Below, piece after piece: positions 4,342 through 12,092 of a DNA stretch of 64,000 nucleotides (positions are counted from its first letter, which is position 1; each line of letters opens with the position of its first letter). The notes beneath the pieces are model-generated. The model saw nothing but the letters and a program-made list of their open reading frames with translations. It was not told the DNA's origin and did no database searches. The position numbers were made by a program, and so were the translations under genes. The DNA is from an uncultured Chloroflexia bacterium (GTDB lineage Bacteria > Chloroflexota > Limnocylindria > Limnocylindrales > CSP1-4), in NCBI GenBank assembly GCA_963752475.1, contig CAVVYR010000006.1, positions 320,001 to 384,000 of the forward strand, read 5' to 3'.

Positions 4342-5172
4342 ATGCCCGACGCCACCGCCCAGCCGACCTTCGATCCCGACGGCGCGCCCGTCAGCGTGCT
4401 GCTCGACTTCGACGGCACCATCAGCCTCGAGGACACGGGTGATGCGTTGCTCGCGCGTCTCTTCGATGACCAAGAGCTGACGCGCCACATGGACGAGCTC
4501 TACATGAGCGGCGAGAAGGGCTCGCGCGAGCTCATCGCCTGGGATATGGAGATGCTGCCACGCGACGCGGACGTGCTCTGGGCTGAGGTCGACTCGCTGC
4601 CCGTCGATGAGACGCTCGCCGATCTGCTGGCGACGGTGCGCGAGGCGGGTGCCGCAGCCGAGGTCGTCTCCGATGGTGTCGGCTTCCACATCGAGCACAT
4701 GCTCGCCCGTATCGGTGTGACCGACCTGCCCGTGGCCACCAACCGCACCGTCGTGGGGGAGGGAGGCGCCGGCGTGAGCTTCCCCTTCGGGCACGCGTCC
4801 TGCTTCGTCTGTGGTACCTGCAAGCGCGAGCGCATCCGGCTGCACCGTGATGCCGGCCGGGCCGTCGTCTTCGTCGGCGACGGGCCCTCGGATCGCTACG
4901 CGGCCCACCACGCCGACGTCATCTTTGCCAAGGGCTCGCTGGCGGTCTGGTGCGAGGTCGAGAACATCCCCTATGAGCCGTGGGAACGATTGGCCGACGT
5001 GGCCGAGTGGCTGGAGATGGCGCTGCTCGACGGCCGACTACCGGCGGCGTCGGAAGGGTACGAGAGCTGGGCCGCCGAGGCCCGCCCGGAGGTCGAGACG
5101 TTCATCTGTGGCCCGGAGGTCTGGGAGTCAGGCCGCACCGTGGCCGGCCGGGCACCGGGCAGCAGGGACTGA
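4342..5172 (+). CDS. HAD-IB phosphatase, MtnX-like
   Basis: DFDGT motif I, VSDG motif II, CxxCGxCK, VGDGPSD motif IV. Confidence 0.85.
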   Translation: MPDATAQPTFDPDGAPVSVLLDFDGTISLEDTGDALLARLFDDQELTRHMDELYMSGEKGSRELIAWDMEMLPRDADVLWAEVDSLPVDETLADLLATVREAGAAAEVVSDGVGFHIEHMLARIGVTDLPVATNRTVVGEGGAGVSFPFGHASCFVCGTCKRERIRLHRDAGRAVVFVGDGPSDRYAAHHADVIFAKGSLAVWCEVENIPYEPWERLADVAEWLEMALLDGRLPAASEGYESWAAEARPEVETFICGPEVWESGRTVAGRAPGSRD

Positions 5173-5244: not shown

Positions 5245-5863
5245 GTGTCTCCCCGACGACGACTCACCGGCATCGCCGCGATGTCCGCGATCACCCTCGC
5301 CACAGCCGGTATCGCTGGCGCACCAGCCACGGCGCAGGAGGACGACGCTGCTGCCGAGTTGCGCGCGATCCTCGAGGCCTTCGGCGGCGGTGACGTGCCG
5401 GATGAGGTGCTGACGCAGATCCTGAACCAGTACGAGGCCATGGGCATCGACCCGATGATGATCTTCGGGGGTATGGACCCCGACATGCTCGAGGCCATGG
5501 CTGAGATGGGTGGCGCGGACATGGACGAGTCGGCCTTCATCAAGATGTTCATGGGCGGCGCGGACGACGAGGCTTTCTTGAAGATGGGTGACGCTGCCTT
5601 CCCCAAGGTGGAGATCCAAGGTAGATGACGCCGAGGCGTTCCCGAAGGTGGAGATCGAGGACGAGGCGTTCCTGAAGTGGGATGCCGAGGACGAGGCGTT
5701 CCTGAAGTGGGATGCCGAGGGCCAGGCGTTCCTGAAATGGGACCCGATCGAGGGTGGTGGGGCCTTGGCCGCCGTGGAGTCCGCGCTGGGTGAGGCGGCC
5801 GCCCAGGGCGACATCGACCCGGTCACCCTGGCGACCATCCTCGAACTGCTGCAGGAGCGATAG
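5245..5863 (+). CDS. Secreted acidic protein with seven A-F-x-K-hydrophobic repeats (split by a +1 base near 5623)
   Basis: Signal peptide ending ATA|QEDD. ORFs 5245-5628 and 5588-5863 join into ~205 aa if one A in CAAGGT(A)GATGAC is removed; the motif continues across the junction. Confidence 0.75.
5657..5740 (+). repeat. 30-bp coding tandem repeat (EDEAFLKWDA), ~2.8 copies
   Basis: GAGGACGAGGCGTTCCTGAAGTGGGATGCC repeated. Confidence 0.9.
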
Positions 5864-5881
5864 CGGCACATCCGGGTCGAT

Positions 5882-7339
5882 ATGGATCGCGATGCCGTCG
5901 CCGCGCTCGGTGAGCGACTCCGGCTCATCGGGTACGACGCGCCGCGCATCCAGCGTCGGCTCGGCCGTATCCCGGCCCGGCTGACGCCCTCGGTCGTCGC
6001 GGTAGCCGAGCGACGGGCCGGGGACGACGTGCTCGGGCAGGCCGTCCGGCTGTGGAACCTTGGATCGACACTCTCTACCGAGGCCGCGGTCGCCACGTTC
6101 GGCGATGTCGACATCGAGGCGCTTGTCGGATGCGGGCTGGTCACCGCCACGTCTTCGGAGGTGCGAGCGGTGCTCCGGCTCTCCCCGGTCGCCGACCGAC
6201 TCCACGCGCATGACTTCGACCGTGGTGGGGGCCTGTCCCGGGACCACGTCGTTGGGATCGGCCCGGCAGCGCTCACGCTTTCGGGCATCACGCCGCGCGC
6301 CAGGGTCGGGCGAGCCCTGGACCTGGGAACCGGTTGCGGCGTGCAAGCGTTCGGCCTGGCCCGGCATGCATCCTCTGTCGTAGCCACGGATATCAGCCAG
6401 CGTGCCGCGTGGACGGCCCGGCTCGGTGCTTCCCTCAACGGCCTCGGCTCGCTCGACATCCGGGTCGGCGATCTGCTGGAACCGGTGGCGGGCGAGGACT
6501 TCGACCTTATCGTGTGCAATCCGCCGTTCGTCGTCTCGCCGGCCGAAGAGCTGGCATTCCGCGACGCTGGCGAGCGAGGCCACGCGCTATCCCGCGGGCT
6601 CGCGAGATCCCTACCGGCCAGACTCCGACCCGGCGGGGTGGCCTGTGTCCTGGTCAACTGGATCGTGCCGCCCGATGTCGACCCGGCAGCGGAGGTCAGG
6701 ACGTGGTTCAGCGACCTCGAGGCAGACGTGCTGCTGCTCCACCATGAGACGCTCGATCCCGTGGCGTACGCGCAGCGTTGGGCAGGCCTTCCCGTCGATG
6801 CCGATCTGGGCACGGCGCGCGGATTCCTCGACCGCTGGCTGACGGAGCTTCAGCGGCTCGGGGCCGCCAAGGTTGCTGCCGGTGCCCTTGTCATCAGACG
6901 GACCGACGCCCGTCCGCGCTGGCGCCTCGTCCGCATGCAGAATCGGCCCTCTGCCGGCGGCCCCCAGGTACAACGGATCTTCGATGCGCTCGGCCGCTTC
7001 TCGGGCCCGGCGGACCCGGCCCTGGAGTCGGCGGTCTTCAGTCTGGTCGCCGGTCACCGGGTCGAGCAGCGACTGCACTACGGCTCGGCCGGCCATGTCG
7101 CGGGACCGGCCACGCTCCGCCTCGATCGTTCTGCGGGCGTGCTCGCGACGGTCCCGGCCGAGCTGCTCGAAGCGGTCTTCCTGATCGACGGTCAGCGCGA
7201 TCTCTTGGCGATCGCAGAGGATCTAGGCGACTCGCGCGAGGTCTCTGCCGCCGCGGTCATGCACGATCTGGCTCCGCACGTGCTGGAGCTGTTCGAGCTC
7301 GGCTACCTGGAGCTCCGGGATGCCCACGGTCCCACCTAG
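5882..7339 (+). CDS. Class I SAM methyltransferase (NPPF type) with C-terminal PqqD/RRE-like domain
   Basis: LDLGTGCGVQA motif I, DLIVCNPPF motif IV; C-terminal LIDGQRDLLAIAEDL...VLELFELGYLE resembles a winged-helix RRE. Confidence 0.85.
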   Translation: MDRDAVAALGERLRLIGYDAPRIQRRLGRIPARLTPSVVAVAERRAGDDVLGQAVRLWNLGSTLSTEAAVATFGDVDIEALVGCGLVTATSSEVRAVLRLSPVADRLHAHDFDRGGGLSRDHVVGIGPAALTLSGITPRARVGRALDLGTGCGVQAFGLARHASSVVATDISQRAAWTARLGASLNGLGSLDIRVGDLLEPVAGEDFDLIVCNPPFVVSPAEELAFRDAGERGHALSRGLARSLPARLRPGGVACVLVNWIVPPDVDPAAEVRTWFSDLEADVLLLHHETLDPVAYAQRWAGLPVDADLGTARGFLDRWLTELQRLGAAKVAAGALVIRRTDARPRWRLVRMQNRPSAGGPQVQRIFDALGRFSGPADPALESAVFSLVAGHRVEQRLHYGSAGHVAGPATLRLDRSAGVLATVPAELLEAVFLIDGQRDLLAIAEDLGDSREVSAAAVMHDLAPHVLELFELGYLELRDAHGPT

Positions 7340-7363
7340 ACCTAGACTGCTTTGATGGGTGTG

Positions 7364-7936
7364 ATGGACGAGGCCGAAGAGGTCCACTTCACGACCGCTG
7401 ACGAATGGCGCTCGTGGCTGACGGCGAACCACACGCGCGAGCAGGGGGTCTGGCTCTTGTCGTACAAGCCGCGCACGGGAAAGCCGGCCATCGACTACGA
7501 GGACGCGGTCTGCGAGGCCCTCTGCTTCGGTTGGATCGACGCCACCTACCGCCATGTCGATGATGAGCGAGGAGCCCTATGGTGGTCGCCGCGCCGGAAG
7601 GGCAGTGTCTGGGCGCGCACGAACAAGGCTCGCGTGGAGCGACTGGAGGCCGAAGGCCGCATGACCGAAGCTGGCCGCGCCGCCATCGAGCGCGCCAAGG
7701 CCGATGGGTCGTGGACCCTGCTGGAGCCGGTCGAGGACCTCATCGTCCCCGATGACCTTGCGGCGGCGTTCGCCTCACGCCCGGGAGCGCAGGAACACTG
7801 GGAGTCGTTCGCACCTACGGCCCAGCGTGCGTACCTGCTCTGGGTCTACACCGCGAAGCGCAAGGAGACACGAGCGAGGCGCGTAGCGGAGTCGGCTGCG
7901 CTCGTCGCCGCTGGACTACGGCTCCAGGATCGCTAG
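7364..7936 (+). CDS. YdeI/OmpD-associated (bacteriocin-protection) family protein
   Basis: WRSWL..NH, EALCFGWID, SPRRKGSVWARTNK, PDDLAAA and AKRKETRARR motifs. Confidence 0.9.
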   Translation: MDEAEEVHFTTADEWRSWLTANHTREQGVWLLSYKPRTGKPAIDYEDAVCEALCFGWIDATYRHVDDERGALWWSPRRKGSVWARTNKARVERLEAEGRMTEAGRAAIERAKADGSWTLLEPVEDLIVPDDLAAAFASRPGAQEHWESFAPTAQRAYLLWVYTAKRKETRARRVAESAALVAAGLRLQDR

Positions 7937-8123
7937 GATCCGCCCAGTTCGTTCGATCGGATCGCAAGTGGTGACAGCAGTCAACGATCGGTGCGGTTCT
8001 GGGCGCTCTGCGTGGAGAATATGTACCATCATGGCGTCACATCTCCGGACCATGACTGGTTCGGGTGGGTCGCCTGCCAATCGTCTTCTTCGCATTCTTC
8101 CGCGGTCCCACCAGGAGATCCAT

Positions 8124-8987
8124 GTGAATACGTCTCAAGACCGATCACACGCAGCAGCGGCGGAGAGGGAGGCCGACGCTTCGAGCGGTCTGTCGCGATC
8201 ATCTCGCGGTCAGGCCCTGGTCGAGTTCGCCCTGATCCTGCCGGTCCTGCTGCTCATCCTGCTGCTCACCGTTGACTTCGGGCGCCTTTTCTTCAGCTAC
8301 GTCGCGGTCAACAACGCGGCTCGCGAAGCGACCAACTACGCTGCCATGCACGCCGGCGATCCTGACTACGACGCCGCTGCCTTCGACGCCGCCGTGGGCC
8401 AGGTGGCTGCCGCGGAAGCCAACGTCCAGGCTCAGGGCGGCGAGAACGAGATCTCCATCACCGGCCCCGTGTGCTTCGCACCTGGCACCGAGGTGGCCAT
8501 GGACTGCAACAGCGCCGCCCAATATGCCGGTGGTATCGGCAACCATGTCAGGGTCACGGCGAGCCAGCCCTTCGACTTCATGACGCCGATCATCGGTGAC
8601 GTGGTCGGCAGTCAGCTGGTGCTGAGCGCCTCTGCCACAGGAGCCGTCCTCAACCCCATCAACCCCGCTGTACTCGACGGCGGCGACGGTGACGATGGTG
8701 ACGACGGCGGCGGCGACGGTGACGATGGTGACGACGGCGGCGACGGTGACGATGGTGAGACGGGCGACGGTGACGATGGTGACGACGGCGGCGATACGTG
8801 CACCGTTCCGCTGCTCACGGGTAGGCTCTTCAACAACCCCAGCGCCCTCAACACTTGGCATAACGAAGCCAACTTCACGGGCACACTGACCAACGACGTC
8901 CCCAGGGACAACCAGAAGATCAAGTACCAGAGCCTTGCCGCGTACTCCGAGCAGCCATGCGACTCGAACATGCGGGTCTGGCGGTGA
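8124..8987 (+). CDS. TadE-like minor pilin with Gly/Asp linker and PASTA-like C-terminal domain
   Basis: G|[11 protein letters not shown] prepilin motif, NNAAREA; GDGDDG repeats; CTVP...QSL..C; AGGAG RBS before GTG. Confidence 0.85.
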   Translation: MNTSQDRSHAAAAEREADASSGLSRSSRGQALVEFALILPVLLLILLLTVDFGRLFFSYVAVNNAAREATNYAAMHAGDPDYDAAAFDAAVGQVAAAEANVQAQGGENEISITGPVCFAPGTEVAMDCNSAAQYAGGIGNHVRVTASQPFDFMTPIIGDVVGSQLVLSASATGAVLNPINPAVLDGGDGDDGDDGGGDGDDGDDGGDGDDGETGDGDDGDDGGDTCTVPLLTGRLFNNPSALNTWHNEANFTGTLTNDVPRDNQKIKYQSLAAYSEQPCDSNMRVWR

Positions 8988-9571
8988 GACCGCGCCATGG
9001 CGGGAGGTCGGCGACTACGGACCAACAGGGTCAGACCCTGGTCGAGTTCGCGATCGTGCTGCCGGTCTTCCTGCTTGTGCTCTTCGGTCTCATCGATGTC
9101 GGTCGGCTCGTGTACACCAACGCAGCCGTTTCACAGGCCGCTCGTGAAGGCGCCAGATTGGCCGCAGCCGAGACCGCTTGGACCGGGGTCACGGATAACC
9201 CGGCTTGCGTCGCCGACGCCAGCCTCATCACCGCGGCAAACCCGGGAGCCTTCGTCTGCCCACTGGATGTGTCCGCGCTCAAGTCACATGTGACGGACGC
9301 GGCACAGCGCATGACGGTGGCGATGGGACCTGTGGCCAGTGTCCATCTCAGCTGCAACACCGGGGCAGACGACGACCAGGCCCCTTCCGGCGAGTGGACC
9401 GAGTCATCGGGGGGAAACGGGTGTGCTGACGGTGGCGGCGATCCGTTTAGTGCCCCGGGCGACCTCGTCTCGGTCCGCGTCCTGTACGACTACCAGTTCT
9501 TCACTCCCATCATCAGCACCTTCCTCGGTCCCACGACCCTGAGCGGCTCTGCGACCATGACAATCAACTAG
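8984..9571 (+). CDS. TadE-like minor pilin
   Basis: G|QTLVEFAIVLP, QAAREGAR; GTGA overlap with the previous gene. Confidence 0.85.
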   Translation: MRPRHGGRSATTDQQGQTLVEFAIVLPVFLLVLFGLIDVGRLVYTNAAVSQAAREGARLAAAETAWTGVTDNPACVADASLITAANPGAFVCPLDVSALKSHVTDAAQRMTVAMGPVASVHLSCNTGADDDQAPSGEWTESSGGNGCADGGGDPFSAPGDLVSVRVLYDYQFFTPIISTFLGPTTLSGSATMTIN

Positions 9572-9580
9572 GAGGCCAGC

Positions 9581-10711
9581 GTGCATCGTCGAAGTCGCAA
9601 GCCACAGCAGGGACAGGCCATCGCCCTCTTCACCCTCGCTCTCTCGGCCCTCATCCTGGCGAGCGCCGTGGTCGTGGATGGCGGGTTCGCTTTCGCCGAG
9701 CGCCGCCAGGCACAGAACGCGGCCGACTTCGCAGCCATCGCCGGAACCCGTATCGTCGGCATCGCCAAGACCGGTCAGCCTGCTGGAGCAGGAACGGCGG
9801 CAAACGTCCGCAACGCGGTCACCTCGACGCTCTCAGCCAACGACGCTTCGCTGGTCAGCGCCCGCTATGTCGACCAGGCCGGCCAGGACCTCGGTGATGT
9901 GACCTCGGCAACGGCTATCCCGCAGGACGCATTCGGCGTCGTCGTCGAGGCCCGGACCGACTGGTCGCCGTTCCTCCTCGGCATCATCGGGGCCGCAGAC
10001 TGGAGTGCGTCCGCGCCGGCCACTGCCTACACGTCCGGCACAAGTGGCGACGGTGGGGTCATGCCCGTGGCTGTGTCTGACACCGCCTACGAGAGCTTGA
10101 CCCAGTGCCTGGTCACGGAGCTCAGCGACTGCATCGGCGACCTTACGCCCGGCACCAACATCAACGCCGGCAGCTTCGGCTGGCTCACGTTCGGACGCAA
10201 GACCAGCAACAAGCATCAGTGCCCGTGGGAGAACAGCCTCAGGATGGACGACAATCCCGACGATTGCGAGCAGAACAACGGCTTCCTGAACCGCCAGATC
10301 GGACCGCCGTCGGTGACCCACGGCTGCTGCGGCCCCGTCGGGGAGGATGATAGTGCGGACCGGATCGGAGCCTACACCGGCAACACACACGGCGACTTCA
10401 GCTACTACATCGAGAACGAACTGGTCGTCTGGGTCCCGATCTATGACGATACCGTCGGCCCACAGGGCTCCGGTTCTGGCGCCTACTACGACATCATCGG
10501 CTTCGGGCCGATAGTGCTGACCGAACAGGACGGCAACTCCAACTCGAGTGCCCACGTGAAGTGGCTGAAGGGCAAGGCCGTCCTCACCGACTGCACGGGC
10601 ACCGATGGTGAGTCGGCCGTGGATTGGTCCATCGAAGGCGCCAGCTACTGCAAGGGCCCGGCCGGCAACTTCACCTTCGGAGCGACTGGGGACGTGCAAC
10701 TCCGTCGCTGA
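9581..10711 (+). CDS. TadG-like pilus-associated protein
   Basis: G|QAIALF, VVDGG...RRQAQNAADFAAIAG Tad N-terminal domain; Cys-rich C-terminus. Confidence 0.85.
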   Translation: MHRRSRKPQQGQAIALFTLALSALILASAVVVDGGFAFAERRQAQNAADFAAIAGTRIVGIAKTGQPAGAGTAANVRNAVTSTLSANDASLVSARYVDQAGQDLGDVTSATAIPQDAFGVVVEARTDWSPFLLGIIGAADWSASAPATAYTSGTSGDGGVMPVAVSDTAYESLTQCLVTELSDCIGDLTPGTNINAGSFGWLTFGRKTSNKHQCPWENSLRMDDNPDDCEQNNGFLNRQIGPPSVTHGCCGPVGEDDSADRIGAYTGNTHGDFSYYIENELVVWVPIYDDTVGPQGSGSGAYYDIIGFGPIVLTEQDGNSNSSAHVKWLKGKAVLTDCTGTDGESAVDWSIEGASYCKGPAGNFTFGATGDVQLRR

Positions 10712-11122: not shown

Positions 11123-12092
11123 ATGAAGCCCCGCAACCGGGTCACAGACGATCGAGCTGGCTATGGCCAGGCATTGGTCGAGTTCGCCCTCGTGACGCCG
11201 GTCATGCTGCTCATCATGCTGCTGGCCGTCGACTTCGGACGCCTGTTCTTCACCTACGTCTCGGTCAACAACGCGGCGCGCGAAGGAGCGTTACTACGCG
11301 GCCACCCACGCTGCCGACTCCGACTACGTACAGTCGACCTACGAGTCACGCGTGGCCCAGGCGGCGGTCAACGAGGCCAACGCCCAGAGCCAGGGCAGCG
11401 AAGGCGCGCTGACGGTGGCTGTGCCCACGTGCTACGAAGCGTCCACCGGGACCGCGTTGTCCTGCGACACGGCCTCTGACTTCGCGGGCGGTATCGGCAA
11501 TCGCGTGACGGTGTCAGCAAGCCGGACGTTCACCTTCCTGACGCCCATCATCACCGACGTCCTCGGCGGCGAGCTGACGCTATCGGCGTCTGCCACAGCG
11601 CCGGTCATGAACCCGGCGGTGACGCAGATCGTGGCCGTGGCCACGCCGACGCCGGCCACGACGCCGACGCCGACAGCTGGCGCGACTGCGACCCCGACCG
11701 CGACGCCTACCGCCACCCCAACGCCGACACCGACCCCGACACCTACTCCCACCCCCACACCGACACCGAGCCCGACGGTGCCCGGGTTCGTCGTACCCAC
11801 ACCGACGCCCACCCCCACACCGACGCCCACCCCCACACCGACGCCCACCCCCACACCGACGCCCACCCCCACGCCCACGCCGGTGCCGACGCCGTCGATC
11901 TGCATCGTGCCGGACTACTGGCACACGCACTGGAACGACGTCGGTGGCGTACATGCACTCGAGGTGTGGGAAGGAGCCGGCTTCAGCGGGACACTCATCA
12001 ACCTCGCCGGCAGCAAGAAGATCCAGAACCAGTCGTTGGCCGCCGGAGTAGAGGTGGCATGTACATCGAACATGTCGGTCGACAACAACTGA
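11123..12092 (+). CDS. TadE-like minor pilin with Thr-Pro linker and PASTA-like domain (frameshift near 11291)
   Basis: G|[11 protein letters not shown]; paralog of 8124-8987; an extra T in GGAGCG(T)TACTAC splits it into track ORFs 11078 and 11352. Confidence 0.8.
11642..11895 (+). repeat. Thr-Pro coding repeat including 18-bp tandem units
   Basis: ACACCGACGCCCACCCCC repeated; (TP)n translation. Confidence 0.9.

Follow-up and report, generated by a model that had tools for sequence, protein, structure and literature searches.

The stretch between positions 5245 and 7339 of the window (the entire 64,000 nucleotides of DNA that were analysed) consists of two genes on the same strand. One codes for a signal-peptide-bearing protein with seven A-F-x-K repeats, the other for a methyltransferase that depends on S-adenosylmethionine (SAM). 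We propose that the two constitute a dedicated pair, in which a cytoplasmic protein N-methyltransferase would act on a motif-bearing substrate, a proposal that we consider evenly balanced between being right and being wrong. The enzyme shares its fold with the N-methyltransferase AerE, in all genomes with a readable context the enzyme gene is directly preceded by the repeat gene, and the repeated motif corresponds to the strand at the N-terminus of Hcp, the tube protein of type VI secretion, whose gene adjoins that of the enzyme in other lineages. This last relation was absent from an earlier, sequence-only reading of the same DNA, which had put the two genes forward as a candidate system for peptides that are made by the ribosome and modified after translation (RiPPs).

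Family and fold of the methyltransferase

The window enzyme belongs to the uncharacterised DUF7059-MTS-DUF7782 family, as both PF23186 and PF05175, the latter together with the NPPF motif, pass on its sequence. PF25004 (DUF7782) gives no match, yet the protein aligns over its full length with its relatives, and four of the five relatives that were scanned pass this model. Among 8000 candidates scored, 2706 relatives were found at E<=0.001, most of them precomputed as PF23186 + PF05175 + PF25004. Residues N213, P214 and P215 are invariant in the 25 aligned sequences.

The enzyme had been read earlier as a nitrogen methyltransferase, and structural comparison agrees with this view. A profile of 25 family members searched against the PDB matched GenN (7.6e-32) and AerE (~1e-23), both ahead of PrmA/HemK. 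The AlphaFold2 model (predicted local distance difference test, pLDDT, 92.1; predicted template modelling score, pTM, 0.90) retrieved AerE as the top Foldseek match (7rc2-7rc6; E 2.4e-20, TMt 0.71-0.73, 24% identity over ~385 columns) and GenN as the second. These matches support a peptide- or amine-type N-methyltransferase and not PrmC. We also considered and rejected a PrmC/HemK assignment (TIGR03534 reaches 55.8 bits vs a cut-off of 199.1, and over the core only), as well as PrmA and rRNA methyltransferase assignments, whose models score far under their cut-offs.

The C-terminal region was suggested previously to resemble PqqD or a RiPP recognition element (RRE). The last 136 residues, folded alone from an alignment of 13 sequences, gave a confident model (pLDDT 90.9). 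With this domain, Foldseek retrieved the carbamoyltransferases GdmN and NovN (their C-terminal domain), PqqD (5sxy; E 4.4e-3, TMt 0.66), TbiB1 with a leader peptide (0.68), lasso B1 (0.63), LynD/TruD, MibB, TbtB, ThcOx, the PbtF RRE and TglHI; more than 10 RRE-bearing RiPP enzymes are present among the 50 ranks listed. The profile of the 13 C-terminal domains matched PqqD in the PDB at E 0.0018-0.012. When the Pfam PqqD model (PF05402) was applied to the last ~55 residues of relatives, P0070 passed (29.2 bits vs 23.4), P0052 (22.5) and P0048 (13.7) stayed below the cut-off, and the Pfam scan of the window protein gave no PF05402 match. Thus, the suggestion is supported, with the C-terminal ~130 residues appearing PqqD/RRE-like by fold and weakly by sequence, each single match being modest.

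The repeat protein and its pairing with the enzyme

The repeat protein is encoded by two open reading frames (ORFs), 5245-5628 and 5621-5863. They make up one gene: a single unbroken metagenome protein, P0141 (203 residues), matches both halves (53% identity to the first over residues 1-158 and 47% to the second over residues 139-202), and the homologues in two genomes of the same genus, G006 (238 residues) and G363 (401 residues), are intact. The extra base near 5617-5625 is either an assembly error or a real mutation. No contig assembled from 4 of the 20 sequencing runs found bridges positions 5617-5641, and therefore the reads neither confirm nor correct it; in run X3 one contig (95%-like) stops at 5616, with 10 loose letters that would continue frame 0, which is too little to use.

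After the one-base correction the product is a very acidic protein of ~205 residues with a Met-rich stretch. Its N-terminus, MSPRRRLTGIAAMSAITLATAGIAGAPATA followed by QEDD, has an n-region, a 24-residue h-region and an A-x-A site, and by eye looks like a signal peptide. The cores follow in the order SAFIKM, EAFLKM, AAFPKV, EAFPKV, EAFLKW, EAFLKW and QAFLKW, and their F-x-K parts contain 7/7 lysines of the protein. The length, the acidity, the signal peptide, the Met-rich stretch, the seven cores and the placement of the lysines had been listed in the sequence-only reading, and all are present; the two helical modules that it placed on either side of the repeats (GDVPDEVLTQIL and GDIDPVTLATIL) are indeed conserved blocks of the family alignment. 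The last four cores are carried by a tandem DNA array with a 30-bp unit (5632-5747, 3.9 copies). As a chance control, all six frames of the complete 4.25-Mb genome were scanned, and only the two half-ORFs reach at least three motif copies per 100 residues.

A HMMER search with the G006 protein against 1.84 billion representatives identified 17 repeat-family proteins at E<=0.001, and a word-based search with the G363 protein added four more; an ESM Atlas search with P0131 returned no usable match. Family members have in common the signal peptide, the helical modules and a varying number of F-x-K cores. The core is longer in P0131 (LFLKIEGIDGEA, four to five copies), P0136 (AFIKVDGIDGDS), P0125 (AFLKLDGVDGES) and the G363 protein (LFIKYDGIDGEA). 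One metagenome sequence, P0123 (286 residues), joins in frame a G363-type repeat protein (its first ~212 residues) to the last ~75 residues of the methyltransferase, that is, the RRE-like end; its origin is either a deletion in nature or an assembly fault.

The repeat gene stands directly upstream of the enzyme gene, on the same strand, in 3/3 genomes with a readable context (the window, G006 and G363). The gap is 18 nt in the window, as noted earlier, 66 nt in G363 and ~10 nt in G006, the last value being an estimate from the length of P0003 (488 residues), since the listed ORF begins earlier. The repeat proteins of the three genomes have strongly diverged while the pairing was kept, and their enzymes form one clade (support 100). 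Of 401 genomes sampled evenly from the bacterial family, 16 code for the enzyme and only two for the repeat family, both together with the same enzyme clade; the pair is absent from the other searched genomes of the genus. The earlier expectation that homologues of the enzyme co-occur with F-x-K-repeat proteins therefore held in every readable context of the repeat family and failed further away: among more distant relatives of the enzyme, the best 80 loci contain neither homologues of the repeat protein nor any ORF dense in F-x-K. A metagenome scan with the enzyme yielded 13 loci, all <=44% identical and none with a repeat protein or Hcp; it did not reach the closer relatives known from the protein search.

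It might be argued that nothing functional connects the two genes: the enzyme would act on a small molecule, on RNA or on some unrelated protein, and in the three related genomes the adjacency would be inherited synteny. GenN is a small-molecule enzyme, the repeat protein is missing from the 80 distant loci, the upstream phosphatase gene is also common to the window and G006, and all three repeat contexts come from one genus. However, G363 has only the pair in common with the window and none of the other surrounding genes, and the pair is patchy among the 401 genomes of the family, in which the repeat protein never occurs without the enzyme. Together with the Hcp data below, this makes the absence of a link unlikely in our view. 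The features of the dedicated pair that we favour are collected in Table 1.

Table 1. Features of the repeat-protein and methyltransferase genes (window coordinates)
Feature	Positions	Strand	Basis or details
Repeat-protein gene, first half	5245..5628	+	frame 0, start GTG 5245, premature stop 5626-5628, 127 aa; aligns with P0141 residues 1-158
Repeat-protein gene, second half including stop	5621..5863	+	frame +1, stop 5861-5863; aligns with P0141 residues 139-202
+1 frame change, one extra base	5617..5625	+	the two ORFs differ by +1; homologues are single ORFs
Signal peptide, residues 1-30, A-T-A before Q	5245..5334	+	by eye; same N-terminus kept in family alignment A3
N-terminal helical module AELRAILEAFGGGDVPDEVLTQILNQYEAMGID	5350..5451	+	A3 block AFGG..IPEEAL.K.E..Y..LG.D
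Seven A-F-x-K cores with acidic spacers, holding 7/7 lysines	5524..5743	+	sequence reading; tandem DNA array; genome-wide ORF scan
C-terminal helical module ALAAVESALGEAAAQGDIDPVTLATILELLQER	5762..5860	+	A3 block ALAQA.A.GDID.ATLE.IL.MLPEE
SAM-dependent N-methyltransferase, 485 aa, DUF7059-MTS-DUF7782 family	5882..7339	+	Pfam; AlphaFold2 model; fold matches AerE, GenN
DUF7059 helical N-terminal subdomain, residues 37-96	5990..6169	+	PF23186, 28.5 bits vs cut-off 27
Rossmann methyltransferase core, residues 139-221; NPPF 6518-6529	6296..6544	+	PF05175, 49.6 bits
C-terminal PqqD/RRE-like domain, residues ~350-481; winged helix 426-479	6929..7324	+	domain model, Foldseek, profile vs PDB

The repeat motif is the N-terminal strand of Hcp

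Clustering of the genes that neighbour distant enzyme loci brought up an Hcp-like gene. By tblastn, Hcp lies within the flank of 14 of the 110 enzyme loci (L010, L011, L013, L016, L022, L028, L038, L049, L053, L068, L106, L110, L111 and L112), and the two locus Hcps that were scanned match PF05638 at 125-133 bits. The N-termini of these proteins read M-A-x-D-x-F-[ILM]-K-h-[DE]-G-I-x-G-E, which is the long core of the repeat family. The N-terminal strand of Hcp has the form D-x-F-[IL]-K-h-D-G-I-x-G-E, and several repeat-family members hold it as internal repeats. We quantified this similarity using a 15-column position matrix derived from 14 Hcp N-termini, with 187,200 sequence windows from 579 neighbour proteins as the control. 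Repeat-family proteins score 16.8-26.2 (P0131 four times, P0136, P0125, P0124 and P0122), and only two control windows exceed 6.2, one at 48.9 (untraced) and one, in an ORF of locus L085, at 13.9. In six-frame translations the strict motif occurs in 11 of the 110 loci, including seven Hcp genes, the repeat proteins of L002 and L103, and an ORF of L012. The resemblance is confined to the strand: both halves of the window protein, P0121 and P0122 give no PF05638 match, and a search of the window's own genome found no Hcp.

The neighbouring Hcp is in several cases the only one available. In G061, G390 and G342 (genomes of 3-3.8 Mb) it is the sole PF05638 gene, and in G207 it is the sole strong one. 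We also approached the relation from the Hcp side. Of 401 genomes sampled evenly across the phylum, 15 have PF05638; 14 were followed, G573 (unpublished) being left out. A full-length enzyme is present in three of the 14, each time with one copy located 90, 583 or 641 bp from Hcp. In the enzyme tree the Hcp-linked members are scattered across both main clades; the gene caller recognised the enzyme in 47/82 and 73/110 loci, so that the tree and the neighbour clusters omit the rest. Three planctomycete loci (L014, L015 and L019) have a type VI secretion context, in which the enzyme is directly followed by a ClpB/ClpV-type double AAA+ ATPase and VgrG (Phage_GPD).

In other lineages the enzyme family is paired with an Hcp whose N-terminal strand is the motif, and therefore the repeat protein is best seen as a multi-copy display of the recognition motif of the enzyme. 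The same data count against a chance association of the two window genes, as independent lineages, single-Hcp genomes among them, pair the enzyme with a motif-bearing Hcp and the control windows score far below the motif matches.

Several other ORFs near members of the enzyme family deserve mention. In an Acidobacteriota metagenome-assembled genome, a 158-residue ORF with a Tat-like (twin-arginine translocation) signal (TRRAVLKG...) and seven F-x-K begins at the methyltransferase stop (L085:5441-5917, +); it has no Pfam match and is the one that scores 13.9 on the Hcp matrix. A 137-residue signal-peptide ORF containing QFLKLD, SFQKYY and FVQKFS is divergent from the methyltransferase at L012:3518-3931 (-), in a genome whose Hcp genes are on other contigs. 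Two ORFs of ~190-215 residues are L118:10407-11048 (+), situated between the enzyme and Hcp in G061 and lacking a Pfam match, and L023:5247-5810 (+), which lies beside the methyltransferase, belongs to a neighbour cluster present in five loci, begins in a way that by eye looks Tat-like, and gives a weak match of the Dirigent-like kind. In Geobacter (L072:2233-3717), genes for an FHA-domain protein that also contains an SLT domain and for a Ser/Thr kinase (the kinase by sequence) flank the methyltransferase; an FHA-domain protein and a Ser/Thr kinase, judged by sequence alone, also flank it in L040 (Chloroflexota).

Proposed mode of action, neighbouring genes and significance

The dedicated pair could work as follows. 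The enzyme combines an AerE/GenN-type catalytic body (helical N-subdomain, Rossmann core and NPPF) with a C-terminal PqqD/RRE-like winged helix. Its substrate would be the very acidic, signal-peptide-bearing protein, the only lysines of which are located in the seven copies of (D/E)-A-F-x-K-h-(D/E). The RRE-like domain would probably capture the exposed, strand-like motif (D/E)-x-F-x-K-h-(D/E) as an added beta-strand, whereupon the NPPF site would move methyl groups from SAM onto a nitrogen in one of the motif's side chains. The most likely acceptor is the lysine, the only invariant residue of the motif with nitrogen in its side chain. The reaction would be repeated copy by copy over the seven cores, in the cytoplasm, before export. 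In this scheme the fold relations, the pairing of the genes and the identity of the motif have been demonstrated, and binding, the acceptor atom and export are inferred. A complex prediction for the enzyme, residues 12-91 of the second half and SAM gave no answer (score 0.00) and is not evidence either way.

Alternatively, the motif proteins might be bound and not modified. In that case the strand motif of Hcp would be a docking site for the RRE-like domain, with the repeat protein or Hcp serving as a scaffold, carrier, decoy or regulator, and the methyl acceptor would be something else. RRE domains are binding modules, and AerE functions without a leader peptide (PMC9060474). The presence of the enzyme together with ClpV and VgrG in loci of type VI context, and the frequent location of Hcp and the enzyme outside one operon, also fit such a role. 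On the other hand, the catalytic NPPF is invariant, the motif has the lysine as its only invariant side-chain nitrogen, 7/7 lysines are confined to the motif as expected of target sites, and a 485-residue enzyme is an unlikely passenger of an Hcp ring. We therefore regard binding alone as quite unlikely.

Among known systems, the closest analogy is with the proteusin N-methyltransferases AerE and PoyE (PDB 7RC2-7RC6), which have the same helical N-subdomain and Rossmann core. AerE iteratively methylates five D-Asn side chains of the aeronamide precursor (PMC9060474), and the proposed system would resemble AerE-AerA in that one enzyme serves many sites of one protein. Unlike the window enzyme, AerE targets D-Asn produced by a radical-SAM epimerase, lacks the extra ~130-residue RRE-like domain, and acts on a peptide with a nitrile-hydratase leader, as opposed to a signal-peptide protein or Hcp. 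At the window locus the enzyme gene is surrounded by genes for a HAD phosphatase, the repeat protein, YdeI and TadE-like proteins; since neither an epimerase nor a nitrile-hydratase-type leader is present, this is not a proteusin system. GenN (gentamicin 3''-N-methyltransferase, PDB 5U18 and others), the top match by sequence profile and second by fold, is a small-molecule enzyme of an aminoglycoside cluster without an RRE-like domain, and the window has no such biosynthetic genes. PqqD and RREs share the fold of the last ~130 residues and a weak profile similarity; in contrast to them, the window domain is fused to a class I N-methyltransferase and falls below the Pfam threshold, and its peptide binding is putative. 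A further parallel comes from Rickettsia PKMT1/PKMT2, which methylate the surface protein OmpB, and from FliB, which methylates flagellin: in these cases a single enzyme modifies numerous lysines of a protein that has yet to be exported. Both fold searches list PKMT1/2 (rank 13), but with little structural similarity (TM ~0.3 with the whole model, E 0.04 with the domain) and without any sequence relation, and their substrates are different. Finally, the repeat proteins have in common with Hcp (PF05638) only the short strand motif, which they hold in several copies and combine with a signal peptide.

The RiPP label attached to the locus earlier is not supported, and a true multi-core RiPP, that is, a precursor methylated, exported and cut into short F-x-K peptides, appears to us very improbable. 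The RRE-like domain, the AerE-like enzyme and the repeated cores with acidic spacers would suit it, and RRE-linked precursors with Sec signal peptides have been recorded (PMC12710340). However, the product is a signal-peptide protein of ~200 residues, the spacers vary in length and sequence and lack a conserved cleavage site, the family has folded-looking helical modules and, in G363, an additional C-terminal region of 170 residues, and the alternative partner, Hcp, is a folded protein of 160 residues. Moreover, neither the distant loci nor the comparison with G363 revealed a conserved protease, exporter or further tailoring gene beside the pair, which has no conserved neighbour except each other's gene.

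A number of observations weigh against the dedicated pair that we propose. The window pair may be inactive because its substrate gene is frameshifted. That the motif reaches the active site is conjectural, and GenN, a relative just as close, has a small molecule as its substrate. The C-terminus of the window enzyme matches neither the PqqD nor the DUF7782 model of Pfam, and its single RRE fold matches are weak (E 4e-3 to 0.3). The window cores have the short form A-F-x-K-h-(D/E), and only the last, QAFLKWDPIEGGG, passes the Hcp matrix, at 5.1. As for Hcp, it does not need the enzyme: 10 of the 14 Hcp genomes are without it, and G556 has only a partial match, on another contig. The enzyme matches adjacent to Hcp in G531 and G646 carry one in-frame stop, and the G342 copy is split into two ORFs. 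The orientation of Hcp with respect to the enzyme varies and is often convergent or divergent, without co-transcription. Conversely, Hcp and the repeat protein are both missing from most enzyme loci, and a large actinomycete clade of the enzyme adjoins topA and an H+-pyrophosphatase gene, with 5/5 tested genomes lacking PF05638. The enzyme family must therefore have other substrates as well.

The remaining genes of the neighbourhood seem not to belong to the pair. The next gene (7352-7936) codes for an OmdA/YdeI protein (PF13376, 74.6 bits), in agreement with its earlier description as a YdeI/OmpD gene, and an MtnX-like HAD-IB phosphatase is encoded upstream (4342-5172, +), in synteny with G006 (72% identity). 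We rejected both as partners, as they are absent from all 80 distant loci and from the G363 locus, the phosphatase being common to the window and G006 only. Further downstream, three consecutive ORFs (7968-10711, +) have similar N-termini; the first of them gives a match to TadE (PF07811) and includes a long stretch of Asp and Gly (GGDGDDGDDGGGDGDD...). An ORF at 11435-11905 (-) has a long (Gly-Val)n run as its N-terminal part. We also rejected a relation of the repeats to the Tat signal: its consensus S-R-R-x-F-L-K holds F-L-K, but the repeats are without the twin arginine, and the N-terminus of the family varies (RRR, TRR, TRK).

The pairing of the enzyme with Hcp or with repeat proteins looks undescribed. 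We found no literature on DUF7059 or DUF7782, nor any on the repeat proteins. Searches for Hcp, methyltransferase, type VI secretion and Actinobacteria returned nothing relevant by title or abstract, and the same was true, by title and abstract, of Hcp lysine methylation in type VI secretion. Regarding RRE-Finder and methyltransferases, the available portion of PMC12710340 does not mention this family; its supplements and those of PMC9060474 might list related enzymes.

A broader scenario can be sketched tentatively, although we hold it to be somewhat less probable than even. RRE-bearing AerE-like N-methyltransferases of the DUF7059-MTS-DUF7782 type might form a widespread, undescribed post-translational system in Actinomycetota, Chloroflexota and Dormibacterota, in which they would recognise and methylate Hcp at its conserved N-terminal strand; family members with no Hcp beside them occur in Acidobacteriota and in type VI clusters of planctomycetes. 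In one actinobacterial lineage, Hcp would have been swapped for an exported acidic protein that bears up to eight copies of the motif, as a poly-methyl-lysine product, either secreted or on the surface.

If correct, the proposed pairing would give a large and so far uncharacterised family of enzymes its first function and its first substrate motif, and would be an example of an RRE-type domain that works on full-size proteins, outside classical RiPP pathways. It would also mean that Hcp, the most conserved component of type VI secretion, is subject to modification, including the puzzling orphan Hcp genes, which to our knowledge occur in phyla without a described type VI system. With seven short sites and lysine nowhere else, the repeat proteins offer a simple substrate with which to test this.

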